Shown in pieces: positions 394 to 30,087 of a DNA stretch of 64,000 nt (position 1 is the stretch's first letter; every line of letters starts with the position of its first letter). Below the pieces are notes generated by a model that saw only the letters and a list, made by a program, of their open reading frames with translations, made no database searches and was not told the DNA's origin. A program made the translations under genes and the position numbers. The stretch comes from an uncultured Anaerolineales bacterium (GTDB taxonomy: Bacteria; Chloroflexota; Anaerolineae; B4-G1), in contig CAYYTU010000002.1 in the NCBI GenBank assembly GCA_964474655.1, positions 64,095 to 128,094 of the forward strand, written 5' to 3'.

Positions 394-3300
394 CTAATCT
401 TCCGCGGTCTCACCGTCGCCATCGCCGCCGTCTGTCGGCGGCTGGGATAGCTCCTGAGCGCTGCCCAGGCGAGCGAAGGTAGGCCGCCCCAAGGCCGTGC
501 CCAGCTCACGTACAGCCGCCCGCACGATGGCATCCGGGTCAGTAAAGCCACGCACGTGGGCCGTGATCTCGCGCAGCGTCTCCTCCCGGCGGGCGCGGGC
601 CTGCGCTCGCTCCAGCAGGCGACGGCTCGCAACAACAGGGGCGGCGAGTGTCACCAAGGCCCGGTAGATTTCCCGTTCCCGCTCGCTGAACTGGTGTGGC
701 TCATCCCAGGAAAGGGTCACAAGGCCCGCCCATCGCCCGACCTGCGTCAAAGGAATGATCGCCACCGCACGGACGCCGAATTGTTGGAGGAAACGCTTGA
801 CATCCCCATCAATTCGCTCGTCGTGCGCCAGATCAGAGACGAGCAGCGGGCTATGAGGCTCGCCTTCCCACAGACGGGTGACGGGGAACTCGGCGAGTGG
901 AAGATGCCGGCCCACCGACTCTTCCAGTGCTCCCCCTCGACGCCAGACGGCCACCGTAGTCAGGCCCGTGGGTTCGCCTTGCTCATCAAGGTCGACGTAA
1001 GAGAGTTTCGCATCAAAAGCGCCGGATTCGATGGCCGTCCGTGCCAAAGCTTGGAGCAGATCCTCTTTGGTATCGGCCTCGTTGAGCTCCCGGCTGATCT
1101 CGTACAACATCTCAGCTTCGGCCAGCGCATCCTGCGTCTGCTCAAACAAGCGAGCATTCTCAATCGCGGTAGCCACCTGATCGACCATCGTCTGGAAGAC
1201 AGTGACATCCTCCTCGGAGAAGGCGGCCGCCTCGGTGCTCTGAACGGTCAACGCGCCGATGATCTCGCCACGGGCGGTGATCGGAAGCGCCAGCTCGGAG
1301 CGCGTCTCCGGCAGATAAGGATTATCAAAGCGGGCAGCCTCGTCGCCCACGTCCAGCGCGATACGGGCTTCCCCCTCGGCGACGCAGCTACCGACCATTG
1401 AGTCGCCGCCGACCCGCAACTTATGCCCGTCCTCCAACATCTGGCGTCCGGCCTCGCCGGTGCCTGTGCGCAAGACGGCCCATTCGCCCGGCTCGCCCGT
1501 CCACTCACCGGTCTCATCGACCATAAAGAGCCCGACGTAGTAGAGGTCGAAGCGCTCACGGACCGTATCGGCCGTGCGCCGAATCAGTTCATCGGGGTCG
1601 AGGATGACGCCGGTCGAGCTAGCCACCTCGGCCACGGCTGCCAGCTGGCGTGCGCGCTTCTCAATCTGCTGAGCGGCCAAGCGCTGCTCGATGTAACTTT
1701 CGAGCCGCCGGACGACGCCCCCTAGCATAGCGCTCTCCTCGTCGATGAAATCCCGATCCTCTTCGTAAGCGACGTAGAGATGACCGGCAGTCTCGCCAGA
1801 GATTCGCAGCGCCGAGACGACGTGACACGACAGCTCAAGGGCCTGGGGCTGACCATACACTTGCTCCTCAAACTTGATGGCGGTCACGCAAACTTCCGGA
1901 TACCGCATCGCCGAAGGAATACGCCCAGCGACCCACTGGAGCAAGTCGGGGATCGAGGGCTCCTCGGCTATGTACTGGCCCACGTCAGTCAGGCAGTTGA
2001 GCTCCTTAACGCGTTCGTTGAGCATCTGCTCGGCGCGTACGCGCTCGGTGATATCCTTTGTAAATCCCAGGAAGCGCGTATCGGACAGTTTGACCGCATC
2101 CACAGTCCAGTATCTTTCGGCTCCATCCTTCCTGATGAACTTGAAATCTCCGGTGGCCTTGCCCGTCTCAGTGAGTTGCTGGAAATGGTCCCCCGCCTCC
2201 GCCATACTCTCAGGAGGTAACAGATCGACGATATGCATTTCCAGGAGTTCTTCGCGGCTGTACCCCGTAATACGACAGGCCGCCTCGTTGACCTCCAGGT
2301 ATCGCCCCTCCTCGTCGGAGATGAAAATGCCATCGGGAGCGTTGTCGATGTAGCTTCGGTATCGCTCCTCGCTCTGCTGCAGCGCCTTCTCAGTCTCCTT
2401 GAGGTCCGTGATGTCCAGGAAGGTGCCAATCAATCCGCCCACGCTGCCATCGGGGTTCCGGAACGTGGTCTTGTAGAATACAACATCCCGGATCGATCCA
2501 TCAGCGTACTCAATCGGGGCCTCATAAGATTCTGTGCACGGATTGTTAAGCATCTCCATATCCAACTCGTGATAGAGCTCGGCCATTTCTTGATCGGGGG
2601 TTATATCGTAGACCGTCTTACCTTTCACATCCTCACCGGGCATACCCAGATACTCCAGGAAAGCCTCGTTGCAGCCGAGGTAGACCCCCTCTGCATCCTG
2701 GTAAAAGATCGGATTGGGTATGTTGTCGACGATGGTGTCCAGGAACTGTTGGGATTCTTGGACTTCGGCGAGCAAGTTGGTGCTCTCAATCGCGCTGGCG
2801 ATCTGCCCGGCCAGACCAAGCAACATCACCTGATCCTCTTCGGTCAGGGCGCCGGCCTGGTCGCTTTGGACGTCGAGCACGCCCAGCACCTCGTCGCGCA
2901 ATTTGATCGGCACTGCCAGCTCGCCCTCCGTCTCCGGCAAGTCTGGATGCGGCTTCCAGTGCGGATCGGCGGTGACGTCGGAAGCCAGCATCGGCTCTCC
3001 GGTAGCGGCAGCGGTGCCGACGACCCCCTCCCCGTAGGGCAAATGGTGCTCGGCCGCCTTCATCTTATCGCCGATCTCTCCATAGCCCTCGACCACCCGC
3101 ATCGCTTCGAGGTCCTCATCGTAGCGGAAGATCTGGACGTGATAATAGCCCAAGCGTTCCTTGACCAGCGTGACGACACGCCTATAGAGCGAATCCAACG
3201 CCGGGGCCCCGGCAATCTCCTGCGCGATTTCGGTGGTGAGCTCCACCTGCTGAGCGCGGCGCTCCAACGACTCCTGAATCTGTCGCTCCAACTGTCGGCG

Positions 3301-5220
3301 CTCGGCGTTTGCCAGCACCTGCGCCACCTGATCGGCGATAGCCCCGGCAAAGCTCAATTCGTCGGGCCTCCACTCACGCGGTTCGCCAACGTGCTCGTGG
3401 CACACGACGCCGACCGTCTCGCCGGTCATCCGAATCGCCGAGTCCAGCATTGAGGTAATCCCTAGCGGTTCCAGATAATCCTCGGCAAACTCGCTGGTGC
3501 GCGGATCGGTGCGAGCGCGATCGGCGTCGATCGTCCGCTCAGTCGTCACTGCCGAGAAGTAAGCGGGGTAATCCTCCGCCTCAAGGACGACGCCCTCGGT
3601 GTGAGTTTCCGACGTGCGTTCGAAGAGATCCTGGCACGTTATCGCCCGCTGATTCTCATCCAGCATCCAGATACTGACCCGTTCGACGTCCATCGTTTCG
3701 GCCACTGTCTCCGTGATAGCTGATAGGGCCTCCTCCCAATCGCCGCTCACGACAGCGTCGTGGGTAGCCAACTCGGCGATAGCATGCTGTTGCCGCTGGA
3801 CGCGCTCCAATCGAGCCTGCTGCGCTCTCTCCGTCCGCTTGCGATCAAGGGCGCTGACAAACGTTTCGCCCACCAGATGGAGAAGGGTCGCGTCATCCTC
3901 AGACCAGGCCCGCTCCTCCTCCACCGCGTCAAACCCCAGGAATCCCACCAACTCACCCTGGTACATAGCGGGGACGACGATGAGCGATTGAATGCCCTCC
4001 GATTCAAACTCCGCCTTCTCGATCCTGGCTTCGTCGGGCATATCGGCCACGCGAGGCACCAGAACATCCTCATGGTTACGAAGCTTCTCCATCAGCCATG
4101 GGAACTGGTCGCTGGGCACTTCCTGCAAGTCGTCAATGGCGGACGCAATACCTTCAGCGCACCATTCGTGAGTATTGCTCATCTGCTCCCCATCCTCGGA
4201 GAATAAGAAGAGATAGCTGCGATCCGCCTCCGTGAACTTCCCAATATCCCGCATGGCCCGGTCGATCTCGACATCCACCGCCTGCGGCTTTACATTGACG
4301 AACCGCGTGGAGATGTTGGCGATGAGGTCCTCGAATTCAGCGCGGTACTCCAACGACCGCTCCGCTTGTTTGCGCTCGGTCACGTCGCGGATGATGGCCA
4401 GCACTTCATCCTCGCCGCTGACGACCATTCGGGCTTCGTAGTCGCGCAGCACATCGTCTTCCATACGGGGCAACCGGTACTCATAGATCGCCGGTTGACC
4501 CGAAGCCAGAACTTTCTCTATATGCTCATTGGTGAGCTGAGCGACGTGCGGAGGCAGAACGTCCTCTATATTCTGCCCCAGGAAAGCCCTCGGGGGCAAG
4601 GCCAGATCGCCTCTGCCAGCGTGGAAGTCGATGAAGACCCCCTCCCGATTCAGTCGGAACATCAAGTCGGGAATAGCCTCAAGCAATGTCTCCATCTGGG
4701 CCTGGCTCTGCTGCAACTCCTCTTCCGCCCGACTACGTTCGGTGATATCGGAGATGAAGCCCTCCAGGGCCACCAGCTCGCCGTCGTCCGAGAAGACACC
4801 CTGCCCGCGCTCCCAGACCCAGCGGGGCTCACCTTCAGCGTCTCTGATGCGATAGGTGACCTGGAAAGGCTCTTTTTTCTCAACGCCAGCCTGGACTACC
4901 TCCCACACGAGGTCCTGGTCGTCCGGATGGATCAAATCGCCATAAGCCACCAGACGGCTACCGATCAAATCCTCAGGGGCATAGCCGGTCAAGTCCTCGG
5001 CCCCTTCGCTGACGAACGCCATCGGCCAATCGGGCTCGTTGCGGCAGCGGTACGCCATGCCCGGCAAGTTGCTCATCAGCCTCGAAAGCCGACGATGGCT
5101 TTCCAACAACTTTTCCCTCGTCAATTCGCGCCCGGTGAGCTCTTCGGTCATACTTTCCTCCTCGATGGGGCCGGAGCCCTCATTCCGAACTTCCCGTTCA
5201 GGCCTCTCATTATCCATCAT
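394..5220 (-). CDS. Large cytoplasmic multi-PAS / multi-GAF signalling protein (1608 aa) with no recognisable output domain. Carries the conserved C-terminal tail module shared with the GAF paralog array.
   Basis: Six-frame ORF. Several PAS-like segments at the N-terminus, for example LMFRLNREGVFIDFHAG and DITERKQAE. Several GAF domains with the LDVQS / NARLFEQ signature. C-terminus reads REETLREITAHVRGFTDPDAIVRAAVRELGTALGRPTFARLGS followed by a DG-rich tail. Start ATGATG has GGGAG 8 nt upstream. Confidence 0.8.
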   Translation of the reverse strand: MMDNERPEREVRNEGSGPIEEESMTEELTGRELTREKLLESHRRLSRLMSNLPGMAYRCRNEPDWPMAFVSEGAEDLTGYAPEDLIGSRLVAYGDLIHPDDQDLVWEVVQAGVEKKEPFQVTYRIRDAEGEPRWVWERGQGVFSDDGELVALEGFISDITERSRAEEELQQSQAQMETLLEAIPDLMFRLNREGVFIDFHAGRGDLALPPRAFLGQNIEDVLPPHVAQLTNEHIEKVLASGQPAIYEYRLPRMEDDVLRDYEARMVVSGEDEVLAIIRDVTERKQAERSLEYRAEFEDLIANISTRFVNVKPQAVDVEIDRAMRDIGKFTEADRSYLFLFSEDGEQMSNTHEWCAEGIASAIDDLQEVPSDQFPWLMEKLRNHEDVLVPRVADMPDEARIEKAEFESEGIQSLIVVPAMYQGELVGFLGFDAVEEERAWSEDDATLLHLVGETFVSALDRKRTERAQQARLERVQRQQHAIAELATHDAVVSGDWEEALSAITETVAETMDVERVSIWMLDENQRAITCQDLFERTSETHTEGVVLEAEDYPAYFSAVTTERTIDADRARTDPRTSEFAEDYLEPLGITSMLDSAIRMTGETVGVVCHEHVGEPREWRPDELSFAGAIADQVAQVLANAERRQLERQIQESLERRAQQVELTTEIAQEIAGAPALDSLYRRVVTLVKERLGYYHVQIFRYDEDLEAMRVVEGYGEIGDKMKAAEHHLPYGEGVVGTAAATGEPMLASDVTADPHWKPHPDLPETEGELAVPIKLRDEVLGVLDVQSDQAGALTEEDQVMLLGLAGQIASAIESTNLLAEVQESQQFLDTIVDNIPNPIFYQDAEGVYLGCNEAFLEYLGMPGEDVKGKTVYDITPDQEMAELYHELDMEMLNNPCTESYEAPIEYADGSIRDVVFYKTTFRNPDGSVGGLIGTFLDITDLKETEKALQQSEERYRSYIDNAPDGIFISDEEGRYLEVNEAACRITGYSREELLEMHIVDLLPPESMAEAGDHFQQLTETGKATGDFKFIRKDGAERYWTVDAVKLSDTRFLGFTKDITERVRAEQMLNERVKELNCLTDVGQYIAEEPSIPDLLQWVAGRIPSAMRYPEVCVTAIKFEEQVYGQPQALELSCHVVSALRISGETAGHLYVAYEEDRDFIDEESAMLGGVVRRLESYIEQRLAAQQIEKRARQLAAVAEVASSTGVILDPDELIRRTADTVRERFDLYYVGLFMVDETGEWTGEPGEWAVLRTGTGEAGRQMLEDGHKLRVGGDSMVGSCVAEGEARIALDVGDEAARFDNPYLPETRSELALPITARGEIIGALTVQSTEAAAFSEEDVTVFQTMVDQVATAIENARLFEQTQDALAEAEMLYEISRELNEADTKEDLLQALARTAIESGAFDAKLSYVDLDEQGEPTGLTTVAVWRRGGALEESVGRHLPLAEFPVTRLWEGEPHSPLLVSDLAHDERIDGDVKRFLQQFGVRAVAIIPLTQVGRWAGLVTLSWDEPHQFSEREREIYRALVTLAAPVVASRRLLERAQARARREETLREITAHVRGFTDPDAIVRAAVRELGTALGRPTFARLGSAQELSQPPTDGGDGDGETAED

Positions 5221-5270
5221 CCCTCAACTCCCTACGTTAAACGCGACATCACTGCGTGGGCCAGCGACGA

Positions 5271-7049
5271 TCAATCGTCCCTCCCGTTTCCATCCCGCTG
5301 CGATGCGTCCTCGCTCCCCAGCCGCGCGAAGGTCCGCGACGTGCCCAGAGCCTTATAAAGCTCATCCAACGCTGTCTGCACGATGCCCTCCACGGTAGAG
5401 GCGCGCCGCATTTGATCCGTGATCTCACGGGTCAATCGCTCCCGGGCGGCGCGGCGCTGGGTGCTTTGATAGAGCCGCGCACTTTCCAGGGCCGCCCCTA
5501 ACTGTTCCGTCAGCGCTTCTAGCAATGAAGTCTCTTCTTTGGACCAATGCGTATCGTCGGGCGACTTGTGCGCTTTGACGGTCCCGATGACCTGATCGCG
5601 CACGACGACGGGGATGGAAAACTCCGGCAAATCCTCTTGAGCCTCATCCATCTGACGACTTCCAGCCGAGAAGACACCCTCTGCATCACAATAATAACTC
5701 AACTCAGCGCGGGCCCGCAATATCTCCGCCCACGCCTCACGGCTCAGATCACCGTAGGCCCGCTGGACCCGCTCCAGGTTTTCCTGTGCTTGCTGGTAAA
5801 GCCGGGTGTTGCTGATCGCCATTGCCACCTGATCGGCCATCGTCTGAAGCACGGTCACGTCACTTTCGGTAAAGGCATCTACCTCGGTGGACTGGACATC
5901 GAGGACGCCAATGATCTCGCCACGCGCCCGCAGGGGCAACGCCGCCTCCGCCCGTACATCAACCCGGTCCGTATCATGGACGAAGAAAGGATCGTCGATC
6001 ACGTCTTGCGCCACGTAGGCCTCTCCCGTTTCGGCGACGTGACCCACCGTGCCCTCCTCCCCCACCCGGAGCCGGAAGTCCTGCTCCAGCGTCTCCCCCA
6101 CGGTCGCACCGGACGCAGCGTGGAGCACAGCCCACTCGCCGGTATCGTCCATCAGGAAAATACCCTGGCGGGAAAAGTCGAACCGCTCGTCGATCAACGT
6201 CACCACGCGTTCCATCAGCGCCGGCACGTCGAGCTCGACCGCAGCGCTGTGGGATACATCGGCGGCGGCTTGAAGATGCCGAGCGCGCTTCGCTTCGACC
6301 GCCATCTGGCGTTCCAGATCGCCATAAAGCTCTTGGAAAGCCCTCCGCATCCGATCCAGGGCCTGCCCAAGCGCCACCACTTCCGACGAGCCTCGAATTG
6401 GAATCGACGTGTCCAGATTCCCATGCCCAATGGCTTCGGCGGCGGCGCCCAGCTCCTTGAGCGACGACGTAGCACGCCGGGTCAAGAGAGCGGTGGTCAG
6501 GACGCCACCCGCGACAACCGCGACGATGGTAAGGACCATCTGGACGATCATCGGCCTAAACGAGGCCCAAAACGGCGTCAGATCAATGACGATCTCCAAC
6601 GTCCCCAGCTGGTCCGTACTCGTAGCAATAGGGCCACACAAAACCAAGTAATTTCTGCTTTCTTGCTGAACTATGTCGCCGCTGGCAAGCGCCTGGGCAG
6701 CCAGGTCCCGGCCAACGTGCTCGTCTAGAGCGGGGTCGAAGTCCTCTATCGCAGCTTCGACGATACTCTCACCCGTCTCATCCCGCACCTCAGCCCGAAC
6801 GGCGTTGACCTTTCCCACCAACTGGCTCAACATGCGCTCCAATTTCAGGTGGTCGGACTCGTAGAGGGGATCAACCATCAACTCAGACGAAAGGGAGAGC
6901 AGGGTACGATTATTCTCCTCCAGCCGTTGCCGACTGGAAAGACGCCCCGCGCGTAAGCCGACAATCAGGAAGACGCCAAGACCCACCACGAGAATACCCC
7001 CCACAACCCAGGAGGCTATCGTGATGAGGCTAAATCGTTTATGCTCCAT
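5271..7049 (-). CDS. Membrane sensor-like protein: 2 TM helices with a periplasmic domain, HAMP, GAF, a half-GAF and the conserved C-terminal tail. No kinase or other output domain.
   Basis: ORF 5271..7070. The tool start is TTG; the first ATG (MEHKRF) is at 7049 and has a GGAG upstream. TM segments are LITIASWVVGGILVVGLGVFLIV and IVQMVLTIVAVVAGGVLTTALL. GAF signature PLRARGEIIGVLDVQSTE. Tail is QRRAARERLTREITDQMRRASTVEGIVQTALDELYKALG. Confidence 0.72.
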   Translation of the reverse strand: MEHKRFSLITIASWVVGGILVVGLGVFLIVGLRAGRLSSRQRLEENNRTLLSLSSELMVDPLYESDHLKLERMLSQLVGKVNAVRAEVRDETGESIVEAAIEDFDPALDEHVGRDLAAQALASGDIVQQESRNYLVLCGPIATSTDQLGTLEIVIDLTPFWASFRPMIVQMVLTIVAVVAGGVLTTALLTRRATSSLKELGAAAEAIGHGNLDTSIPIRGSSEVVALGQALDRMRRAFQELYGDLERQMAVEAKRARHLQAAADVSHSAAVELDVPALMERVVTLIDERFDFSRQGIFLMDDTGEWAVLHAASGATVGETLEQDFRLRVGEEGTVGHVAETGEAYVAQDVIDDPFFVHDTDRVDVRAEAALPLRARGEIIGVLDVQSTEVDAFTESDVTVLQTMADQVAMAISNTRLYQQAQENLERVQRAYGDLSREAWAEILRARAELSYYCDAEGVFSAGSRQMDEAQEDLPEFSIPVVVRDQVIGTVKAHKSPDDTHWSKEETSLLEALTEQLGAALESARLYQSTQRRAARERLTREITDQMRRASTVEGIVQTALDELYKALGTSRTFARLGSEDASQRDGNGRDD

Positions 7050-7086
7050 AAAATGATTCTCCGTCCTCAAACGCCATCAGGTTGGG

Positions 7087-9588
7087 CTAGCGCCCATCGG
7101 TCTCGTTCAGCTGAACTGTGACATCATGCAGATCCAACGCCTCACGCATTTCGCGCACGGCGGTCTTTAATACGCTTTCCATATCCAGCGTCTGGCGCAT
7201 GCGGGCCGTAGCCTCACTCGTCAGACGCTCGCGGGCGGCCCGACGCTGGGTCTCCTCGTATAATCGCGCTCGCTCCAGCGTCACGTTCAAGCGCTCAGTC
7301 ACGATTTCCATTAACGCTATCTCCTCCTCAGACCAGGCGCCGTCCTCGTCCGATTTGCGCAGCCGTATCGCTCCCACGACGTTTCCACGAATCCTGATCG
7401 GGATAGCCAGAGTGGTTCCGGCTTGCTGAACTGTGCTTCTCTCCTGGCTCACCATCTCCATGACAGAAGGTGGAACTCCCTCAACCGGTCGCACGCCCTT
7501 GACGTCACTGGCGTAGCCCAGATGGGCCTGTCTCTGGACCATCTCCTGCCAGGCGCGACGACTGAGCTCACCGTGAGCGCGCCGCTCCGCCTCCAGGCTC
7601 TCCTGCGCTTGCTGGAAGAGCTGCGCGTTGCTGATCGCCAGCGCCACTTGATCGGCCAGCACCTGCAACACCGCGGTATCCTCCTCCGTAAACGCCTGCG
7701 CCTCCATGCTCTGCACGTCGAGGGCGCCGATGATCTCTCCCCGGGCTCGCAGCGGCAAGGTCATGGCCGAACGCGTCTCCGGAAGGTCTGGATTGTCGAA
7801 GAAGACGGCGTCTTCGCCCACGTCCAGCGCGACGCGAGGCTCTCCGTGCGCCGTCACATACCCCACGGTGCCCGTCTGGCCCACCTTCAAACGGTGTCCC
7901 CGCTCCAACATTCGCGCCCCACCCGCGCTGGAGGCGGCCCGGAGCACGGCCCATTCCCCCGTCTGATCGAGCAAGAAAAGGCCCGAATGGTAGAACCCGA
8001 ACCGATCACTGATCAGCCGTACCACGCGGGAGAGCAGATCGTCGAGATCCAACTCAGAAGCTGCATCGCGCGCCACCTCGGCGGTGGCTTCCAGGTAACG
8101 GGCGCGCTCCTCCAGATCCTGGGTGCGTTCCTCCACTCGCTCCTCCAGGGACTCGATCAAATCGCGCAAACGGGCTGCCATCTCATTGAACACGGTGGCC
8201 AGCTGCCCCAGCTCGTCATTGGAGCTTATCTCCTGAGGGAAAGTGGACGCCTCGGCCGCGGTACTCTCCGCCAAGTTGCCGATGCCGCCGCCGGAGCGCA
8301 CCGGGACGCGATAATCCAGATCGCCAGCGGCGATCCGTTCCACGCCCTCCGTGAGCACCTCCAAAGGGCGTCCCACGATGTAACGGAGGCTGAAGTAGAC
8401 GACGAGACCGACCAGCAAGGTTCCCATCACTGCCGTGAGCCAGATGCGAGACAACAAGCGTCGGGTCACCTGCTCCACCTCCACGACAGGGCTCAAGACG
8501 ACAGCCCGGAGATCGGCGGCAGCCCCCCCCAATGAAGCCCCGGATAGAGCCAACGGTTCCTGCGCGTAGTAGAACTCGGTCTCGTCCAGCGTTAAGGTCG
8601 TCTGGCCTTGCTCCAGCATCCTTGCCGCCCCAAGCCCTCCGTCGCCGTCCAGGCTGGTGTTCAACAGTCGTCCGCCTCGCGCCAGCCCCACGTCCAATCC
8701 CAGCTGGTTCTTGAGCCGCGTCATCATAGCGGCGTCGAACTTCTGCTCTACCAATATCAATCCCACCGACGCTACCTCTTCCTCCCAGGTCTCCGGGTGA
8801 GCAACCGGCCCCTTCACCGGATACCACGTCTGCAAGATCGGGATATTCCCTTCGACGACTATCTCCGAACGCGGTGGGGCATCCGGCTCCCAATCTCGTG
8901 GGAAGAATTCATAGGCAATCACCCTCTCCACCCGGGTGAAGTTCTGATCGGCGTAGAATTGGGCCGGAGGCGCCGAGTAGGCCGCACTGATGTCGAAGTA
9001 ACCGGGCTCTGGAGCGCGGAACGCCTCCGCATCGATGCTGTATGTCATACGCGAGTCCAGGTCGACCTTGCTGGTGAACCGATTCAGCACAATCTCATCC
9101 TCACCGAGACGAAAAGCCAGCACCGGTCTGACGTCAGAGACGACGTCGAATGGCGAAATCAAATAAAAGCTGATCGCCGTCAGATCGTTCAACCGCTGCG
9201 CCGAGCGCAAGAGCTGGACGAGATTGAGCTGGGCCTGAAAGGCATAGATCTGACTAGCGGGCTCGATGGGCTCGTCCGAACGCACGAGGGCTTCTCCAAA
9301 AGAGGATCCGGGGTCGGCGTAATAAGGGCCCAGATTGGTCAGGAGCTGGATCTCCTCGACCATAGACTCGTTCTCCTCCATACTCATTCCGGTCACCGCT
9401 GCGTTCTGCTCCATCTCAGCGATGCGCCTGGCGAAGATCTGCGACATACGCGCCAGCTCATCCTGTTTGACCGCCTCCAGGTCACTGGAGCTGGAGCTGC
9501 CCACCACAAACGAGATTCCGGCGGCGAACAGCAGGAAGATAACGCCCACGACGACCATCAATTTTTGACCAACGCCCCATCTAGACAT
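7087..9588 (-). CDS. Membrane sensor-like protein: large ~330-aa periplasmic domain, HAMP, GAF, half-GAF and conserved tail. No output domain.
   Basis: 833-aa ORF. TM segments MVVVGVIFLLFAAGISFVV and IWLTAVMGTLLVGLVVYF. HAMP motif IAAGDLDYRV. GAF signature LPLRARGEIIGALDVQSMEAQAFTEED. Tail is QRRAARERLTSEATARMRQTLDMESVLKTAVREMREALDLHDVTVQL. Confidence 0.75.
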   Translation of the reverse strand: MSRWGVGQKLMVVVGVIFLLFAAGISFVVGSSSSSDLEAVKQDELARMSQIFARRIAEMEQNAAVTGMSMEENESMVEEIQLLTNLGPYYADPGSSFGEALVRSDEPIEPASQIYAFQAQLNLVQLLRSAQRLNDLTAISFYLISPFDVVSDVRPVLAFRLGEDEIVLNRFTSKVDLDSRMTYSIDAEAFRAPEPGYFDISAAYSAPPAQFYADQNFTRVERVIAYEFFPRDWEPDAPPRSEIVVEGNIPILQTWYPVKGPVAHPETWEEEVASVGLILVEQKFDAAMMTRLKNQLGLDVGLARGGRLLNTSLDGDGGLGAARMLEQGQTTLTLDETEFYYAQEPLALSGASLGGAAADLRAVVLSPVVEVEQVTRRLLSRIWLTAVMGTLLVGLVVYFSLRYIVGRPLEVLTEGVERIAAGDLDYRVPVRSGGGIGNLAESTAAEASTFPQEISSNDELGQLATVFNEMAARLRDLIESLEERVEERTQDLEERARYLEATAEVARDAASELDLDDLLSRVVRLISDRFGFYHSGLFLLDQTGEWAVLRAASSAGGARMLERGHRLKVGQTGTVGYVTAHGEPRVALDVGEDAVFFDNPDLPETRSAMTLPLRARGEIIGALDVQSMEAQAFTEEDTAVLQVLADQVALAISNAQLFQQAQESLEAERRAHGELSRRAWQEMVQRQAHLGYASDVKGVRPVEGVPPSVMEMVSQERSTVQQAGTTLAIPIRIRGNVVGAIRLRKSDEDGAWSEEEIALMEIVTERLNVTLERARLYEETQRRAARERLTSEATARMRQTLDMESVLKTAVREMREALDLHDVTVQLNETDGR

Positions 9589-9630
9589 AGCCAGCCTCTC
9601 TCATCCCCAACTCACCCAAGACTAAATCGC

Positions 9631-13232: not shown

Positions 13233-13250
13233 CACCGCCTCCAAACGGGC

Positions 13251-15512: not shown

Positions 15513-15513
15513 C

Positions 15514-16173
15514 CTAGCCTACTAACGCAAAAGCCAGGGCGTAAGCTGCCCAGATCCAAAGTCCCTGGACACCCCCCAGAATCGGCGCCAGCCACCAGGG
15601 ACGCTCTTCCAATCGCCACACCAGGAGCACTGCCCCACCGGCGATCAAGAACTCTCCCATGATGATGTAAAGCGGAACCGGCCCCCACATTTGCGTCTGC
15701 TCATAAAACCACCACACGGCCCCCTTGGCCCACCATTCGTAGAGCGGAATCGTGGCAGCCCCCAACAATCCAGTCAGCACCACCGCCCATCCCAGATCGA
15801 TTTTTTGCGACAGTCGCCAGCCGATGTAGGCCGTCTGAACCAGGACAACGCCCCAGGCGAAGGGCATATAAAGCGGCGAGCGAACGACAAAAGGCCCGCC
15901 CGGGTGAAAGACCAGCGTCTCGGTCACATCCACCAGCCAGCGATCGGCCAACAGCTCCGTCCAGCCTGCCACCATAGCCAGAAGAAGGAGACGTCCCGTC
16001 AGGCGGTTCCGACTCCAGAGAAAATAGCCGATGAAGATAAGCCAGTTGAGGGCAGTGATGATACTAGCGCCGATCCAGCCCGGAGCCAGCAGCGAGCAGA
16101 GCCCATTCCAGAGAAGCGTCAGCGCCAAAGTGCCACCGATAATCCAGTCACGCGATCGCGGCATCGTCTCCAT
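15514..16173 (-). CDS. Hypothetical integral membrane protein (about 6 TM helices), embedded between two GAF genes.
   Basis: ORF 15514..16224. The preferred start METMPRS at 16173 has GGGGAGG 7 nt upstream. This start still overlaps the upstream gene end (16148) by 26 nt. The stop is 1 nt from the next gene start. Rich in Trp, Leu and Gly. No family recognised. Confidence 0.5.
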   Translation of the reverse strand: METMPRSRDWIIGGTLALTLLWNGLCSLLAPGWIGASIITALNWLIFIGYFLWSRNRLTGRLLLLAMVAGWTELLADRWLVDVTETLVFHPGGPFVVRSPLYMPFAWGVVLVQTAYIGWRLSQKIDLGWAVVLTGLLGAATIPLYEWWAKGAVWWFYEQTQMWGPVPLYIIMGEFLIAGGAVLLVWRLEERPWWLAPILGGVQGLWIWAAYALAFALVG

Positions 16174-19060
16174 TCCCGTCCTCCCCGTTATCGCTTTCAT
16201 CCGCTGCGCCATTGATCTCATCATCAGCGGTACGCCCCTCCTCGTCTACCGGGGCGCCATTCCCATCCGGACCGGTCATCTCGACGCTCACCATATCCGC
16301 CTGGAGCGCGCGGCCCAGCTCTCTGACCGTCGTCTCTAGAATCGCGTCCGGGTCCATTGAGCCCCTCAGCTGACCGGCGATTTCACCTACCAGCTGCTCA
16401 CGAGCAGCACGGCGCTGCGTCTCTCGATATAACCGTGCTCCTTCTAACGTGACCCCCAGCTGGTCCGCCACCGCTTCCAGCGTCCTTATTTCCTCCGGCG
16501 TCCAGGGATCGGCATCGCTGGGCTTATACGTATCCAGGACTCCCACCACCTGACCGCGCACTTTGATCGGCACAGAGAGAGGATGATTATTGCCAATGCG
16601 GTCCAACATCTCTCCGTGGGCCGGTTTGCCCGTGCGCACGGCCTCCTCCATAGCCGGTCGCCAGATATCGCCGACCTTGACCACGCCTCTTTCGTCGCTA
16701 TGATAACCCAGGTTCGGCTGAATCCGCAGCAGCTCGGCCCAGGATTCACGGCTCAACTCTCCGTAGGCCCGCTGGGCTGCCTCCAGCGCATCCTGCGACT
16801 CGGCGAAGAGGTACGCATTGTCCAGCGCCACCGCCACATAGTCGGCCATCGTTTGTAAGACGGTGACGACGTCTTCGTCAAAGGCGGACGGCTGGACGCT
16901 CTGGACAGTGATCGCGCCCAGGATTCGACCCCGGGAGCGGAGCGGCAGCGCCACCTCCGAGCGCGTTGACGGGAGCAACGGATTGTCAAAGTGGACCGGT
17001 TCGTCACCGACATCCAACGCGATGCGCGCCTCGCCCCGATCCACACATTGGCCGATCATCGATTCACCGCCTACTTTAAGCTTATGGCCCTGTTCCAGCA
17101 TCTGCTGTCCGGCCTCGCCGGTACCAGCCCGCAGCCGAGCCCAACCACCGGTCTCGTCCATCAGGAAAAGCCCGACATAGTAAAACCCGAACCGGCTGCG
17201 AATCAGATCGACCACGCTCTGGTTCAGCTCATCAACGTCCAGAATGGAGGAGGCGGCCCGTCCCACCTCAGCGGAAGCCTCCAGGTAGGCCGACCGGACC
17301 TCAAGATCGCGCGTGCGCTCGGCGACGCGTTGCTCCAGGTTGCCGATCAGCTCCCGCAGTCGCGCCGTCATACTATTAAACGCTTTCGCCAGAGCGCCGA
17401 TTTCATCCTGACGCTCCACACTCGCAGTGCGCTCCAGGTCGCCGGCGGCGATCTGCGAAGCCGTCTCCGAAAGGGTCTGGAGCGGTCGCCCGATGCTTTG
17501 TGCGATGAGCAACGAGACTAAGCCCGCAGCCGCAGCTGCTATCACAGCGATCCCAGCATTGGTCCAAACTGTCCTGTTGATGCCGCTCAGAGCCTCCGAT
17601 TGATCTTGCTCGGCGATCAAAGCCACCTGGAGACGAGGCAGCCAGTGGTAGACACCCACCACCGGCACCTCACGATAATCCAGGTAAAGTCCGGACCCGT
17701 CCATTTTGGTGGTTAGAGCAGTCTCGACCGCCTCCGTACGCACATAAACTCTCTCTTCATCTCCAAAACGCGAGGCCGTGATCATAGCGTTGTTGGCCCC
17801 GACGAGATAAGTCTCTCCCGTCTCGCCCAGGCCGGCTCGCTCCGACATAATCTTATCCAGCGTCTCCATACTGGCATAGCCAGCCAACACGCCCAGTAAA
17901 CGCCCATACTCGCCAAGCACTGGACGGGAAACCACCACCAACGTACGATCTAAAGAGGGGGAGTAAAATGGCGGCGTGATGTAGGATAACCGCCTGCCGC
18001 GCTGAAAAAATTCTTCCTGACGCCGGATTTGGCCCTCTTGGCTAGGCATGGTGGAGAGGATGATCTCACCATCGGGGTCCACTAAAAAAACCGTCTCAAG
18101 CAGCTGCTCCTGTTGCAATATCCGCTGGAAGTCGTTTAGGAGAATCTCGTACGATTCTTGATAGTCCGCCGAATCCTCCTGCGCATCGATCAATCTGCTC
18201 ACAACCTCGACCATCTCCGAATCCAGATACCGCAGATCCGAGGATTGCCGGACCGAGCTGGCCAAAACATCCTCAATGCTGGTCAGCCAGCGCTCAATCT
18301 CGGCCTCCTTCAGCGTGGCTACCGACTCCAGCTGATTGACGACCTGCTGGCGACCGCTGCGGGTGCCGGTGATCACCGACCCGGTGGCGACGGCCCCGGC
18401 CGTCAGCGTCACGGTGACGATGGAGGTAACAAGCATTCGATTACGGATACTCCGGAGGAGGAAGTCGCGTATAAGCCGCCACAGGACGAATCCGCCCACT
18501 AGCGCGGTGAGGGAGAAGACGAGATAGGGCACCAATCTCAATTGGGTCACATCGTAACGCGGCAGCAAATCAACCCGATTGACCAACCAAAACCAACCGC
18601 CCAGGAGCGCCAAAGCAGCGCCCCAGACCCACCACCTCTTCCACAAGATAGCGCGGGCCAGAACCAGAATCAAGAAGATGCCGCTCAGCAACAGATAGAG
18701 CGTAACTTCCTCCAACACCAGCTCGCCGCCGCCATAAGAGATCACGACGGAAAATAACAAGACGGCGCCGGCACGATCAGGGTTACCCCGTCGCAGCTGC
18801 CAGGCTGCCACAGCAACCCCGAGCAGGCTCAACGCAGCTAAGCCCATCACTACCAACATCTGCCAGGCCTGCGTCTGGAGGACAAACAGCGTATAAAAGA
18901 CGAAAACGACCAGATCGGTAAAGAGGCCAACGTGCAAAATACGCCTGATCCGTTCGCGCCGCTGCTCCTCCAGGATAGCGACATCGACCTGCGTCTCAAC
19001 GAGGCTGGCGTTACGAGCAGCGCTCGCTGGTTGCCGTTCAGCCTTCCTATCGTCAGTCAT
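16148..19060 (-). CDS. Membrane sensor-like protein: polytopic N-terminus, periplasmic Cache-like domain, HAMP, GAF, half-GAF and conserved tail. Its sensor module is homologous to that of the histidine kinase at 25329..27788, but it lacks the kinase core.
   Basis: 970-aa ORF. Cache-like block VVGVYHWLPRLQVALIAEQDQSEA matches VIGVYQWMPALELALVAEQKQETA in the kinase. HAMP motif IAAGDLERTASV. GAF signature LPLRSRGRILGAITVQS. Tail is QRRAAREQLVGEIAGQLRGSMDPDAILETTVRELGRALQADMVSVEM followed by a long acidic tail. Confidence 0.78.
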   Translation of the reverse strand: MTDDRKAERQPASAARNASLVETQVDVAILEEQRRERIRRILHVGLFTDLVVFVFYTLFVLQTQAWQMLVVMGLAALSLLGVAVAAWQLRRGNPDRAGAVLLFSVVISYGGGELVLEEVTLYLLLSGIFLILVLARAILWKRWWVWGAALALLGGWFWLVNRVDLLPRYDVTQLRLVPYLVFSLTALVGGFVLWRLIRDFLLRSIRNRMLVTSIVTVTLTAGAVATGSVITGTRSGRQQVVNQLESVATLKEAEIERWLTSIEDVLASSVRQSSDLRYLDSEMVEVVSRLIDAQEDSADYQESYEILLNDFQRILQQEQLLETVFLVDPDGEIILSTMPSQEGQIRRQEEFFQRGRRLSYITPPFYSPSLDRTLVVVSRPVLGEYGRLLGVLAGYASMETLDKIMSERAGLGETGETYLVGANNAMITASRFGDEERVYVRTEAVETALTTKMDGSGLYLDYREVPVVGVYHWLPRLQVALIAEQDQSEALSGINRTVWTNAGIAVIAAAAAGLVSLLIAQSIGRPLQTLSETASQIAAGDLERTASVERQDEIGALAKAFNSMTARLRELIGNLEQRVAERTRDLEVRSAYLEASAEVGRAASSILDVDELNQSVVDLIRSRFGFYYVGLFLMDETGGWARLRAGTGEAGQQMLEQGHKLKVGGESMIGQCVDRGEARIALDVGDEPVHFDNPLLPSTRSEVALPLRSRGRILGAITVQSVQPSAFDEDVVTVLQTMADYVAVALDNAYLFAESQDALEAAQRAYGELSRESWAELLRIQPNLGYHSDERGVVKVGDIWRPAMEEAVRTGKPAHGEMLDRIGNNHPLSVPIKVRGQVVGVLDTYKPSDADPWTPEEIRTLEAVADQLGVTLEGARLYRETQRRAAREQLVGEIAGQLRGSMDPDAILETTVRELGRALQADMVSVEMTGPDGNGAPVDEEGRTADDEINGAADESDNGEDGNGDDAAIA

Positions 19061-19096
19061 AATGGCTCCGTTCCAAACAACCTCCCAAACCCTCGC

Positions 19097-20104: not shown

Positions 20105-20285
20105 AACACACTTCCCCCAGCCCGGCAATGGGCAAACGAAGCAATTCCAAAGCCTCGTAGACACATCAGATTACCTACAAACGCGTTTACCGAGCGTATC
20201 AACCCCAGCACCATTTACCTTCTTCGCACCTGAGCACACTCTGTGGCATTGAAGGCACTTTCGCAGACGATTCGCTTCGAAAACC
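20105..20285 (-). repeat. Copy B of a ~150-180-bp dispersed leader repeat (parts 1 and 2), in minus orientation immediately upstream of the NMT1-like solute-binding gene.
   Basis: The reverse complement aligns at about 85% identity with 29071..29225. Shared blocks are CGAATCGTCTGCGAA, GCCACAGAGTGTGCTCAG, GAT(A/G)CGCTCGGTAAACGCG and GGTGCTTTGGAA(C/T)TG(C/T)TTCG. Confidence 0.7.
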
Positions 20286-20316
20286 ATCGATTACGCCAGA
20301 ACTTCACGGGCCTGCT

Positions 20317-22068
20317 CTATCCACTCCCATCACTACCGTCCACATCTTCGCCGTCTCCGCGAGGCGCCAGCCGAACGGTGACCGCGGGAAGGTCCATCGC
20401 CTCACGCACCTCCTCGGCGGCGGACTTGAGGACGCTCTCCATATCCAAGGATTCACGCAGTCGAGAGGCAATGTCGCCGACCAGGCGCTCGCGCGCCGCG
20501 CGACGCTGCGATTCGTCCATCAAGCGCAAGTTCTCAATCGTCTGCGCTACTTGCTCAGCCACGGCCTCCGCCATCTCGATCTCCTCCGCCACCCACAGGC
20601 GATGAGGACGCGTATCCCTCAAGGCCATAGTGCCGATCACCTGCCCACGCAGCTTCAAAGGCACGACAAGAGCAGAACACTGAGGTTTGTCCATCGGACT
20701 CTCCGAACGGGCCTCCCCCACAACCACCACGTCGCCCCGTTGTACGACCTGCTCTCGGGCCTGGCGGAGCTCATCGCCAATCTCCAACTCCACGTCCGGC
20801 CGCGTATAATCAACCCGGCCCACCTCCCGATTGGTCAGGAAGCCCTGCCACTCTTCTGCCAAGTAACGCCGATGGATGGCCTCCACCTCTTCCAGCGCCG
20901 CCTCGGTGCGACTAAACAGCTGCGCGTTATCGATGGCAATCGCGACCTGGTCAGCCATCATCTGGAGGGTCTCAACGTCGTCCTCGCTAAAAGCAGCCTC
21001 CTGAGTACTCTGGACGCTCAAAGCGCCCAAAACTTCCCCCCGTGAGCGCAAGGGTAACGCAATTTCCGAATGCGTATGCTCCAGAAGCGGCGGAGCAAAC
21101 CGCGCTGTCTCGTCAACTTTCGGCGTCACTTGAGCCTCACGACGGATGATGGCTTGTCCCACTGTGGTCGTCCCGTCCAGCTGCAATTGATAGTTCATCT
21201 CCTGTAATTCCCGACCGGCCCGGCCGGTCGCCGCCGCTAACGTGACCCCGCTCTGCGCCTCGTCGAGCAAGAAGCAGCCCACGTAATAAACGCCCATCGA
21301 GCTAAACCCCGATTGAACGCGATGAACTACCTCGTCCAACAGACGGTCCGGATCCAGGATGGAAGAGCTGGCCTGAGTGACGCTGAGCGACGAGGCCAGC
21401 TGCTTTGCGCGATGGTGTAACTCGCGCGTGGTCTTTTCCAGATCTGCGGTACGATCTTGAAGGTCCTCCTTCACCTCACGAGCATCGGCCAGCGCTTGCC
21501 CCCACCACCGACTCAGCGTCTGTGTGCTTAGCAACAACGCCAGCACCACGATCAAAAAATCGCCCCCCTCGCCAACCCAGTAACCCAACGTGGTCGAATC
21601 GGAGACATGTAAAGGGACTTTCCCCCAGGCAACAAACAGGGTATTGGTCGCATAAATCACAAGACTTAACCCGGTAAAAGCTGTCCCCAATCTCCGTCCC
21701 AACAAGATGAAGGTCACTGTGGGAAGCAAAACTAACCAGAGCCGCCCGCTGCCCGCCATACCACTGCGGGTGAGGATGAAGGCGCTCATCGTGTAGCCTG
21801 CTATCAAGAACATCAAAGCCCGTGTGCGGTAGTATAAACTCCGCCAGACTAAGGCCACTAAGGCAAGAGCCCAGGCTACAAAGAAAGGCACCATAAAGGC
21901 CAGACGCGCCGATCTTTCAAGACCACCCAGAAAACCAGATCCGATGAAGAAGAGATAAGCCAGCAGAGCGCCCCCGCCGACAACGCCGAGCCACAACAAG
22001 CTGTTCAAGAGCTCGACCCGTCGCTGCTGAACGTCACTCCCCCACTGAGAAATACCTTGTGTGCTCAT
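20317..22068 (-). CDS. Polytopic membrane protein (about 8 TM helices) with GAF, half-GAF and conserved tail. No output domain.
   Basis: 583-aa ORF. GAF signature ALPLRSRGEVLGALSVQSTQEAAFSEDD. Tail is QRRAARERLVGDIASRLRESLDMESVLKSAAEEVREAMDLPAVTVRL followed by GDGEDVDGSDGSG. Confidence 0.75.
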   Translation of the reverse strand: MSTQGISQWGSDVQQRRVELLNSLLWLGVVGGGALLAYLFFIGSGFLGGLERSARLAFMVPFFVAWALALVALVWRSLYYRTRALMFLIAGYTMSAFILTRSGMAGSGRLWLVLLPTVTFILLGRRLGTAFTGLSLVIYATNTLFVAWGKVPLHVSDSTTLGYWVGEGGDFLIVVLALLLSTQTLSRWWGQALADAREVKEDLQDRTADLEKTTRELHHRAKQLASSLSVTQASSSILDPDRLLDEVVHRVQSGFSSMGVYYVGCFLLDEAQSGVTLAAATGRAGRELQEMNYQLQLDGTTTVGQAIIRREAQVTPKVDETARFAPPLLEHTHSEIALPLRSRGEVLGALSVQSTQEAAFSEDDVETLQMMADQVAIAIDNAQLFSRTEAALEEVEAIHRRYLAEEWQGFLTNREVGRVDYTRPDVELEIGDELRQAREQVVQRGDVVVVGEARSESPMDKPQCSALVVPLKLRGQVIGTMALRDTRPHRLWVAEEIEMAEAVAEQVAQTIENLRLMDESQRRAARERLVGDIASRLRESLDMESVLKSAAEEVREAMDLPAVTVRLAPRGDGEDVDGSDGSG

Positions 22069-22158
22069 CCCTTCACCCTCACTTCTTAACCCACAATATC
22101 TTCTTCAATTATCACACAACTCCAAACAGGCCTCCCAACCAGAAACCGAGGCCATAGC

Positions 22159-24159
22159 CTAACGCAACCTCGCATCCACCCTCTCGCTCCTGCCTGCTGC
22201 CGAACCGCCATCACCCTCCAGGTTCAATTCAATCGAGACCTGGGGCACCTTCATCACCCGCGAAAGCTCCTCGGCGGTCGTGTGGAGCGTCCGTTCTATC
22301 GTAGCGGAGCGGCGGATACGATCCACCACCCGCCGCGTCTGCTGCTCCCTTTCCGCACGCCGCCGGGCGTCCTCCAACAGACGCGCCCGTTCCAAAGCCA
22401 CCGAGGCTTGATCGCTGAGAGCCTCATATAGGCGTAACGCTGATTCGGAGAAGGGGCCAGCGGCGTCTCGCAGGACGACCACTTGCCCAATCACGCGCCC
22501 GTGGGTACGGAGCGGGATGTTGACCAGGGCTCGGACGCCGGTGGTCTCGAAGACCTGCTTGGCGCTGTTGGGCAGCCGATCATCATCCTGCACGTCGGAG
22601 ACGGCCCAGAAGCTGCTGACCAGATCAAGGGGAAAAGGGCTTTCTGAGATCGGGAGCCGCACGCCGGGCTGGAACTGGGGCGTGCGATCTCGCCGCCAGA
22701 CGTCCAGATAGAGCAAGGCCTCCGGCGATCCATCCGGTGAAAGCTCGAAAGCGACCACCAGACAGCCATCGGCCCCCGTATCAACCACGGAGGAGACCAC
22801 GGCGTCGGCCACCTCGGAGGGCGTCGTCGCCGTGGTCAGTCGACGGCTGACCTTGTACATCGGCCGCGTCGCCTCCAGCAAGGAGATGCGGCTGGAGATG
22901 CGCCGGGCGTTCTGGATGGCGACTGCGATCTGGTCCGCCAGGCTCTGCAACACCTGGACGTCGGTGGCGTCGAAGGCCGCCACCTGATCGGACTGCACGT
23001 CGAGAACGCCCAACATCTGATCTCCGACGCTCAACGGAAGGGTCACCTCAGAGGCAACATCGGGCAAGAGGGGATGGGGATGATGGATCGCATCCTCCTC
23101 CACGTTGCGCGCGATCCGCACTCGATGGTGGAGGGCGGTCCATCCCACCATACTCGTCTCTGCTACCGGCAAACGGAGCCCTTCGGTCATCAGCTTGGGA
23201 CCGCTCGCCCCGGCGGCGGCCTTCAAATCGACCTGTTCCCCACTCTCATCCAGCAGGAAAATGCTCGCGAAGTAGACATCCAGACGCTCGCATATCAAAT
23301 CCACCGTCTTATGCACCAGATGGTCGGCGTCAAAGATCGACGTAATCGCTTGCCCTACCTCAAAGCTGGCCTCCATCTGCGTCACACGACGACGCAGCAT
23401 ATGCGTGCGCTCCTCCAACCGGGCTTGATGGGCTTCCAAATCCTGCGCCAGCTTCTGGCTGCGGGCCAGCGCGTTCGCCATCCGGGGCACCAGGTAATTC
23501 TGCAACAGCAACAACAACGCGCCCACCAGAAGGAAAAGCAGACTGGTCATCACCCAGGAGGCAGCGTCGCCGGTCTCGCCCGGCGGCGGGACGACCATCC
23601 CCGTTGAATAGGCCCACCCAAATCCCACCAGCGTAAGAAGGGAAAGTCCAAAAGCGATCAGTCCACTTCGATGGTCAAAGAAGAAGGGCGCCACCAGGGA
23701 AAATGCCAGTAAAAAAAGAACACCCCCGCCGCTGCGACCAGCAGTGGATAAGGCCACAACGCCCAACCCATAGAGCACCGTCAACAACGTCCAGACTCGA
23801 ACGTCATAGGAAACGCGAGACCAGAACGTAATCACAGCCAGCCCCGCATATGTGAGCACGTAAACTGGAATCAGCCACAGCCGATCGGAGCGGTAAGCGT
23901 TATAGGTCCCAATGACTACGACCAGACCACTGATCAACAGTAAAATCCGCAGCGCACCGTAGATCAGCCACTCCCGCCACTCTTTCATATCCCCTTCGAC
24001 GCGCTTTCCCATCGCGGATAATAACCCGGCATCCAGGCCCGGCGAAGGCTCCTCTACCTCTGACGGCGGTCCTTCCAGATCCTCCTCGCTTTCTGGCTCC
24101 AGAGGGGGGAAATCGGAGAAAAGCGCCTCCATTGAGTTTTTCAGTCGATCGTCATCCAT
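22159..24159 (-). CDS. Polytopic membrane protein with an acidic N-terminal peptide (MDDDRLKNSMEALFSDFPPLEPE), GAF, GAF-like module and conserved tail. No output domain.
   Basis: 666-aa ORF with GGGAG 11 nt upstream of the ATG. GAF signature LPLSVGDQMLGVLDVQSDQVAAFDATD. Tail is ARRRAEREQQTRRVVDRIRRSATIERTLHTTAEELSRVMKVPQVSIEL. Confidence 0.75.
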   Translation of the reverse strand: MDDDRLKNSMEALFSDFPPLEPESEEDLEGPPSEVEEPSPGLDAGLLSAMGKRVEGDMKEWREWLIYGALRILLLISGLVVVIGTYNAYRSDRLWLIPVYVLTYAGLAVITFWSRVSYDVRVWTLLTVLYGLGVVALSTAGRSGGGVLFLLAFSLVAPFFFDHRSGLIAFGLSLLTLVGFGWAYSTGMVVPPPGETGDAASWVMTSLLFLLVGALLLLLQNYLVPRMANALARSQKLAQDLEAHQARLEERTHMLRRRVTQMEASFEVGQAITSIFDADHLVHKTVDLICERLDVYFASIFLLDESGEQVDLKAAAGASGPKLMTEGLRLPVAETSMVGWTALHHRVRIARNVEEDAIHHPHPLLPDVASEVTLPLSVGDQMLGVLDVQSDQVAAFDATDVQVLQSLADQIAVAIQNARRISSRISLLEATRPMYKVSRRLTTATTPSEVADAVVSSVVDTGADGCLVVAFELSPDGSPEALLYLDVWRRDRTPQFQPGVRLPISESPFPLDLVSSFWAVSDVQDDDRLPNSAKQVFETTGVRALVNIPLRTHGRVIGQVVVLRDAAGPFSESALRLYEALSDQASVALERARLLEDARRRAEREQQTRRVVDRIRRSATIERTLHTTAEELSRVMKVPQVSIELNLEGDGGSAAGRSERVDARLR

Positions 24160-30035: not shown

Positions 30036-30087
30036 CGACGGTGAAGCCCAGGTCCCGACGGACAAGCCAGTGGGACATGCCGACCCT

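Follow-up and report, generated by a model that had tools for sequence, protein, structure and literature searches.

Tandem- and multi-GAF signalling proteins are parallel dimers arranged on a helical spine. In these proteins, such as the Tlr1612-family c-di-GMP phosphodiesterase, PDE2A and CyaB2, successive GAF domains are joined by a junction of α5, linker and α1. The junction always leads to a complete GAF and finally to an enzymatic output. The same junction motif is found at the C-termini of eight proteins encoded in a 64,000-nucleotide stretch of DNA, hereafter the window, from an uncultured Anaerolineales bacterium of the Chloroflexota (contig CAYYTU010000002.1, positions 64,095 to 128,094 of the forward strand). 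In contrast to the tandem-GAF proteins, the eight end within the junction and have no output. Their genes are all on the minus strand, inside window positions 394–24159. We call the shared C-terminal segment of ~55 residues the module, and we propose that it is a GAF-derived stub retained as a common C-terminal transmitter or docking end. For identity and function combined, our confidence in this proposal is about even.

The module aligns readily over the last 60–95 residues of the eight proteins. A first-pass annotation, made by a model from the DNA letters, had described a common C-terminal alignment, and the pattern stands in the form L[YL][EQ][ED]TQRRAARE[RQ]L-x3-I-x3-MR-x-[ST]LD-x3-VL-x-TA-x-x-E-x4-L-(4-5 aa)-V-x-V-R-L, with a variable tail after it. 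The hidden Markov model profile A1 was built from the eight window C-termini and six homologues. It scores 64–90 bits on the eight window proteins, so the resemblance is not due to chance. The tail had been called acidic and Gly-rich, and this is borne out across the family: among 423 members, the tail has a median length of 15 residues and is net negative in 84%, with E, G, D, S and P over-represented. The number of carriers, given earlier as nine, is eight, namely seven membrane GAF paralogues and a PAS/GAF protein, p394. The ninth GAF protein is a histidine kinase (25329..27788) that is encoded beyond the range 394–24159 and is without a module.

The closest known structures are the GAF N-terminus and the GAF-to-PHY junction of phytochromes and cyanobacteriochromes (8w26, 6oap, 2lb5, 6bhn and 6oza). 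When A1 was compared with the PDB sequences, it matched the SyB-Cph1 GAF (8w26, 1e-12; 2lb5, 2e-8), a dual-sensor kinase cyanobacteriochrome (6oap, 4e-10) and NpR6012g4 (6bhn, 4e-7). Every match falls either on the helix-helix-strand of the N-terminus or on the GAF-to-PHY junction, 8w26 being matched at the junction too. Module positions 7–50 pair with the first ~45 residues of the solved GAF domains. The suggestion that the TAVRE-containing segment resembles the start of a canonical GAF is thereby confirmed, the segment corresponding to linker helix, α1 and β1. Also confirmed, for all eight, is that the proteins end right after it. Unlike the phytochrome and cyanobacteriochrome GAFs, the module stops after β1 and so lacks a sheet, a pocket for ligand or chromophore, and α5. 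Judged from these alignments, the module is a truncated GAF start in which everything past β1 is missing.

Neither Pfam nor NCBIfam has an entry for the module itself. Isolated modules give no match to the Pfam GAF families (PF01590, PF13185, PF13492) even at E ≤ 10, and the Pfam GAF matches fall on the upstream domains only. With NCBIfam, no family reaches its cut-off on the whole proteins, and the database clusters that contain homologues carry only the generic label “GAF domain-containing protein”. No relevant description was found in the literature on permuted GAFs, on GAF/HAMP proteins in Anaerolineae, on output-less Chloroflexi GAF sensors or on MASE11. A complete GAF fold has an antiparallel sheet of five or six strands between N- and C-terminal helices; the module contributes two helices and no more than one strand. 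By profile and predicted fold, the module is not a GAF domain but a conserved fragment of one.

The terminal modules also differ from the GAF starts that lie inside proteins. Among 1.84 billion representative proteins, A1 has 10,663 matches at E ≤ 1e-3. Hundreds of internal GAF starts in multi-GAF proteins are among them. The highest totals belong to very large proteins of this kind, in which 6–12 weak internal copies of 10–48 bits each are present, each internal copy preceding a complete GAF. C-terminal copies, with at most ~55 residues after them, score 45–98 bits, whereas internal GAF starts within the same Chloroflexota proteins score only 8–27 bits. It follows that the terminal class is distinct, and not merely typical of its lineage. 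The module and the canonical internal starts have in common L1, Y2, A9, R11, E12, L14, I18, R23, S25, L26, D27, E38, L43, V/I50 and L52. The D46-R47 motif of the canonical internal starts, also present in the phytochrome and cyanobacteriochrome GAFs, is lost from the terminal class, in which Q6, R7, R8, A10, R13, T34, A35 and R51 are specifically conserved. A logo of 411 terminal sequences shows that the strand keeps an alternating hydrophobic pattern (V48, V/I50, L52). RRAARE was considered as a unique docking motif, and this idea is weakened by canonical junctions with a similar basic-x-A-E/A-R-E pattern. Even so, a clear difference separates the terminal class from the internal starts of the same organisms.

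The likely origin of the family is indicated by repeat proteins. In P0119, P0133, P0129, P0174 and P0175, a shortened GAF body lies between an internal module and a second, terminal one. In P0119, the strand of the internal module is followed by 14 residues and then directly by the hairpin and α5, i.e., a three-stranded mini-GAF unit. The simplest reading is that the internal module of the repeat proteins is the ordinary N-terminus of the next GAF unit, and that the family arose by cutting the last GAF unit just after β1. Taken as a statement of structural and evolutionary identity alone, that the module is a GAF-derived stub is very probable.

The structure of the module was modelled with AlphaFold2 as single chains of two proteins in which different domains precede it. 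The gene for p7087 (7087..9588, 833 residues) encodes two transmembrane segments, HAMP, a first GAF domain termed GAF-A, and a compact GAF termed GAF-h, the half-GAF of the first-pass annotation, which lies at 7258..7590 (residues ~667–777 by the model). The p7087 module (7093..7263, residues 776–832) scores 90 bits. The model of p7087 residues 493–833, from an alignment of 101 sequences, has a mean predicted local distance difference test score (pLDDT) of 89.2. In this model, α5 runs unbroken into helix 1 of the module, up to module position 24 (H262–307); a turn at the SLD motif follows, and helix 2 (H311–326) corresponds to module positions 28–43. The last 15 residues are coil, with pLDDT falling from 69 to 39, and strand positions 48–52 are unplaced. 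The second protein, p13251 (13251..15512, 753 residues; multiple transmembrane segments), has the order GAF-A, GAF-h, GAF-C, module, with the module at 13293..13463 (residues 684–740, 80 bits). Its GAF-C plus module, modelled from 40 sequences with a mean pLDDT of 87.4, gives helixes H157–202 and H206–221 and then coil, pLDDT 63 falling to 41. Thus, both models have the same helix-turn-helix and an unplaced strand that joins no sheet.

Coevolution was analyzed by mean-field direct coupling analysis (DCA) of 541 non-identical terminal sequences (effective number 463), with columns for hairpin, α5 and module, and with terminal and internal copies run as separate classes. As a positive control, the β4–β5 ladder of the upstream GAF is recovered (2–19, 4–16, 6–15; z 5–5.5). 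Helix 1 is coupled to helix 2 at R23–V31 (z 6.2), R23–T34 (z 4.8) and R21–E38 (z 3.7), which indicates an antiparallel hairpin within the module. The strand is coupled to its own turn and helix 2, at V48–L26 (z 4.3), R51–V28 (z 3.4) and 45/46–G40 (z 4.3–5.1). Between strand and α5, the maximum z is 1.5, no contact signal. To judge from models and couplings, the module behaves like an independent helix-turn-helix unit, with the last strand folding back on its own turn and helix 2.

The domain upstream was also reconsidered. That it is a half-GAF is correct at the level of sequence in five proteins, in which Pfam GAF positions 79–133 only are matched, and an hhalign comparison of this region with GAF-A aligns only the β-hairpin and α5 (probability 98.7%, 58 columns). 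It is incorrect for the fold: in the AlphaFold2 model, GAF-h of p7087 is a closed, compact, five-stranded GAF with its own N-terminal helix, at pLDDT 81–93. The elements are H143–194 (linker plus α1), E200–203, E206–209, H215–223, E227–229, E234–241 and E244–252, followed by α5. In the model, then, the upstream region keeps its own α1 and strands, and the tail is not needed to supply them. In three of the eight proteins, p394, p13251 and p22159, a full-size GAF stands directly before the module, so the module is not tied to a half-domain. This GAF is of the GAF-C type in p22159 (22159..24159, 666 residues; MASE11, GAF-A, full GAF-C; module at 22216..22380, residues 594–648, 64 bits) and in p394 (394..5220, 1608 residues; PAS and GAF, with zero transmembrane segments predicted by hydropathy). 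The p394 module (451..618, residues 1535–1590, 66 bits) is followed by an acidic tail of 18 residues.

These results bear on the two explanations offered by the first-pass annotation, a permuted GAF and a split GAF completed in trans. If the GAF were permuted in cis, the upstream hairpin and α5 and the terminal α1-β1 would close one fold, with β1 on the last upstream strand. The N and C termini of GAF domains are close together, making permutation geometrically easy. The partial profile match of the upstream sequence, the existence of homologues with repeated hairpin-α5-module units, and one isolated strand-to-hairpin coupling (V50–G15, z 3.2) would also suit such an arrangement. Yet the closed GAF looked for in the AlphaFold2 monomers is not seen: the upstream region already has a helix and five strands of its own, and the terminal strand is coil (pLDDT 39–69). 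The outcome is the same behind the full-size GAF of p13251, where a whole GAF intervenes between GAF-h and module. The DCA that recovers the β4–β5 ladder at z ~5 has no ladder between strand and upstream hairpin in the 541 sequences, and the internal module of the repeat proteins is most simply the N-terminus of the unit that follows it. A permuted GAF in cis is thus rejected as very improbable. If completion were instead in trans, β1 would pair with a dimer partner, a paralogue or an unrelated protein, and the stub would be ordered only in the complex. The conserved alternating hydrophobics of the strand and its unplaced state in both monomer models are what such pairing would lead one to expect, and weak couplings within the strand, 5–7 residues apart (97–103, 97–102; z 2.8–2.9), could reflect antiparallel self-pairing. 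The latter, however, are present at canonical GAF starts too and may be artefacts of the alignment end. Homomeric contacts would show in DCA as well, so the absence of strand couplings to the hairpin ladder or α5 argues against completion by the same hairpin, whether in cis or across a homodimer; the strongest strand couplings go to its own turn and helix 2. A gene for an N-terminally truncated GAF, a possible partner, was sought among 69 related loci, and none is present. Completion in trans is considered unlikely, though less so than permutation.

Two further explanations leave the GAF fold aside. The helical hairpin of the module directly continues a sensor-domain helix, as does the dimerization and histidine phosphotransfer (DHp) hairpin of HisKA kinases, and the module might be a histidine-less HisKA homologue that forms mixed bundles with the operon kinase. 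Both hairpins continue directly from GAF α5, and the operon encodes a GAF-HisKA kinase; the sequences have a loose visual likeness only, around ERL/ERF...M. Against this, hhalign of 411 modules with the DHp region of the operon kinases gives a probability of 0.4%, there is no Pfam HisKA (PF00512) match, the logo has no conserved His, and the significant homology is to GAF starts instead. The module proteins also differ from HisKA proteins in having no H-box histidine and no ATPase domain. As homology, the resemblance is rejected, and a pseudo-DHp role is barely credible. More serious is the view that the stub is a structural relic that only ends and stabilises the dimeric spine, with signalling placed elsewhere, for example in HAMP/GAF-A hetero-oligomers with the kinase or in ligand sequestration. 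The HAMP and GAF-A core is common to kinase and sensors, GAF junctions in general share many of the residues conserved in the module, and the modules within a genome show no concerted evolution, all of which would be in keeping with a relic. On the other side, the terminal modules are sharply distinct from, and more conserved than, the internal junctions of the same organisms, as the bit scores above attest. Many of their conserved charged or polar residues (Q6, R7, R8, R13, T34, R51) are specific to the terminal class, and the module alone is shared by every architecture, whatever GAF precedes it. We regard a mere relic as rather doubtful, on a par with completion in trans.

The preferred reading, a GAF-derived stub serving as a shared transmitter or docking end, owes much to the absence of any other output. 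By Pfam, no output domain is found in the eight window proteins or in six long homologues (up to 2263 residues), the latter having PAS, Cache, HAMP and GAF only. Members of the family carry input and relay domains only (Cache, 4HB, MASE, PAS, HAMP, GAF), and the module stands at the usual place of the output domain. Since the stub is retained in hundreds of output-less Chloroflexota sensors, it probably serves them as a common signalling end and is not a GAF in rearranged form. We propose the following arrangement. The sensors would be parallel dimers, as is general among HAMP and tandem-GAF proteins, and the signal would pass along the helical spine of their HAMP and GAF domains. Capping this spine, the stub would form a helical hairpin, probably part of a four-helix bundle in the dimer. 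The conserved polar surface of T5, Q6, R7, R8, R11, E12, R13, R23, D27, T34, E38 and R51, with the flexible acidic tail, would form a common contact site, through which many different sensors may act on one shared partner. The likeliest partner would be the operon's kinase and receiver pair; the alternative is a ParA-like ATPase. The idea of docking to either is in keeping with the conserved operon. A shared-docking function is, in our estimate, possible but tentative, and falls somewhat short of even.

Several observations weigh against this assignment. A9, R11, E12, R23, D27 and E38 are conserved at ordinary GAF junctions too and may be purely structural. Concerted evolution of the modules within a genome, which would be the signature of a common partner, was looked for and not seen: for 93% of modules, the nearest relative is in a different genome, and module identity is hardly higher within a genome (44.5%) than between genomes (43.2%). 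Thus, the modules bear no mark of co-adaptation to a partner specific to their genome. In the 69 related loci, the ParA-like gene is found in 14, a kinase in 10 and a receiver in 8, so that universal co-occurrence is unproven at ~20 kb per locus. Neither monomer model places the amphipathic strand, which leaves room for pairing in trans. Finally, as the models are of single chains, the dimeric four-helix cap and any docking are inferred.

The finding would matter in several ways. Output-less sensors are common in genome annotations and usually ignored, the route of their signal being unclear, and the module offers a concrete handle. In hundreds of sensors, a short, sharply conserved GAF-derived stub replaces the output domain. 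If the stub is a shared contact site, it would represent a new way to wire many inputs into one two-component pathway, and a new domain family that is now annotated only as “GAF domain-containing protein”. The family shows that part of a common fold can persist and specialise by itself. This is relevant to domain annotation, since profile matches to half a domain are easily misread as permutations or pseudogenes. As a domain finding, its interest is moderate; it would be higher if the array proves to be a GAF-based multi-receptor system.

The distribution of the module was examined by protein and genome searches. Word-indexed protein searches gave 95 and 51 homologues, those with names being called “GAF domain-containing protein” and coming mostly from Anaerolineae or from Chloroflexi metagenome bins, and all end 1–55 residues past the module. 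When genomes were scanned, one for each species, 234 matches were confirmed. The 69 loci that were kept all come from Chloroflexota (Anaerolineae/Anaerolineales, Thermoflexia/Thermoflexales and Ca. Aquidulcis); the search patterns were family-specific, so this finding leaves absence elsewhere unproven. These loci, ~20 kb each, and the window's eight genes together give 423 module genes whose 3′ end is complete, of which 411 stop within 60 residues past the module.

The module genes are tightly arrayed. In every one of the 69 loci, they are all on one strand; there is a median of 6 per locus and up to 9, they fill a median of 79% of the locus DNA, and the median gap is 16 nt. In 21 of the 69, a histidine kinase gene, genes for single-domain receivers or a gene for the ParA-like ATPase is present. 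The ParA-like orthologue, where found, is embedded in the array of module genes, and one or two receiver genes lie upstream of the arrays in the receiver-containing loci. Where flanks are visible, the usual order is 1–2 receivers, a HAMP-GAF-HisKA-HATPase kinase, 5–6 module genes, the ParA-like ATPase, and further module genes. The kinase is mostly at the head of the array, although it is at the far end in two loci; in two other loci, receivers are followed directly by module genes. Genes for NMT1/THI5-like binding proteins are frequently scattered within the arrays. An arrangement that can be called a super-operon, consisting of 1–2 receivers, a HAMP-GAF-HisKA kinase and at least 5–9 co-directional module genes with a ParA-like gene among them and periplasmic binding-protein genes in between, recurs in Chloroflexota, at window positions 394–28230 (minus strand) and in loci L001, L009, L012, L016, L022, L028, L042, L048 and L062.

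In the window, the head of the operon is a single-domain response-regulator receiver of 138 residues (27814..28230, minus strand, as are all the genes that follow in this account unless noted; Pfam Response_reg, 2.6e-19). Next is the 819-residue histidine kinase (25329..27788), with dCache_1, HAMP, a GAF of the GAF-A type, HisKA and HATPase_c by Pfam. No other protein of the cluster has an enzymatic output. A ParA/MinD-like P-loop ATPase of 286 residues (24472..25332; Pfam AAA_31 2.5e-45, CbiA, BcsQ-like) follows, and is a candidate partner only. The sensor array then extends to position 394.

The organization invites comparison with the methyl-accepting chemotaxis proteins (MCPs). The likeness of the module to the MCP signalling tip is in logic only: in both, many membrane sensors with varied inputs share one conserved, membrane-distal helical hairpin. 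As in MCP systems, the sensor genes are accompanied by those for one kinase, for single-domain receivers and for a ParA-like ATPase. Chemoreceptor arrays are positioned by ParA-like ATPases (ParC, PpfA). Unlike in MCP systems, CheA and CheW are absent, and the kinase belongs to the classical HisKA type. By Pfam, MCPsignal (PF00015), the long antiparallel hairpin with the conserved tip for kinase control, is absent from the eight proteins, the only related match being to the 4HB_MCP_1 input domain in p11370. An extended version of the docking proposal is that the module is the kinase-control, or ParA-binding, tip of a Chloroflexota-specific multi-receptor system not described before. Arrays of 6–10 or more output-less HAMP-GAF membrane sensors with varied inputs would converge on one kinase and CheY-like receivers, and a dedicated ParA-like ATPase would position the arrays, making them chemoreceptor-array-like, with GAF parts in place of MCP, CheA and CheW. 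We consider this extended version speculative and, on balance, unlikely. A further comparison is with the S-helix, a coiled-coil linker of ~40 residues with a central conserved polar motif that lies between sensor and output domains. Helix 1 of the module has a conserved R-E-R-L; unlike S-helix linkers, it has no output domain downstream.

The seven membrane paralogues have varied inputs (dCache_1, 4HB_MCP-like, MASE11), HAMP in most, and a well-conserved GAF-A in all. In addition to p7087, p13251 and p22159, described above, they are as follows. p5271 (5271..7070, 599 residues) has two transmembrane segments, HAMP, GAF-A and a compact GAF-h, and its module (5304..5474, residues 533–589) scores 80 bits. 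p11370 (11370..13244, 624 residues) has a 4HB_MCP-like sensor, HAMP, GAF-A and GAF-h, with the module at 11391..11558 (residues 563–618, 83 bits). The longest, p16148 (16148..19060, 970 residues), has multiple transmembrane segments, dCache_1, HAMP, GAF-A and GAF-h; an acidic tail of 37 residues follows its module (16262..16432, residues 877–933, 86 bits). In p20317 (20317..22068, 583 residues), a MASE11-like membrane domain is followed by GAF-A and GAF-h, and the module (20359..20523, residues 516–570) scores 81 bits.

Three genes within the array do not encode sensors. The first, at 9631–11373, encodes a secreted-looking protein of 580 residues that has no Pfam or NCBIfam match and has orthologues of >1000 bits in 7 loci. 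The second, at 15514–16224, encodes a DUF6989 membrane protein, which is found in the window only and not in the 69 related loci. The third, at 19097–20164, encodes an NMT1/THI5-like binding protein present in 21 loci. The three may be co-sensors of the adjoining receptors.

A 92-residue open reading frame (24197–24475) separates the ParA-like gene from the first sensor gene. Its residues 1–46 are similar to the N-terminal part of p22159 (score 84 in local alignment), and the rest is acidic and of low complexity. Conservation of this frame was looked for in the 69 related loci and none was found; it is probably a duplicated 5′ fragment of the p22159 gene.

A few observations on single loci may be added. 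The far-end kinases of L027 (14710–18573) and L036 (12793–17817) have 5–8 GAF hairpin-α5 units before HisKA, at a spacing of ~120–170 residues. In L066, an open reading frame of 1491 residues (8405–12880) contains two modules, at residues 542–595 and at the C-terminus. It looks like two adjoining sensor genes fused, either as a real fusion or through an assembly or frameshift error. In the window (1–64000), G+C is ~0.60 across the sensor array and 0.66–0.70 past ~44 kb. On the plus strand, at 29902–30936, a GIY-YIG nuclease domain is fused to a zinc ribbon and a NUDIX hydrolase domain.

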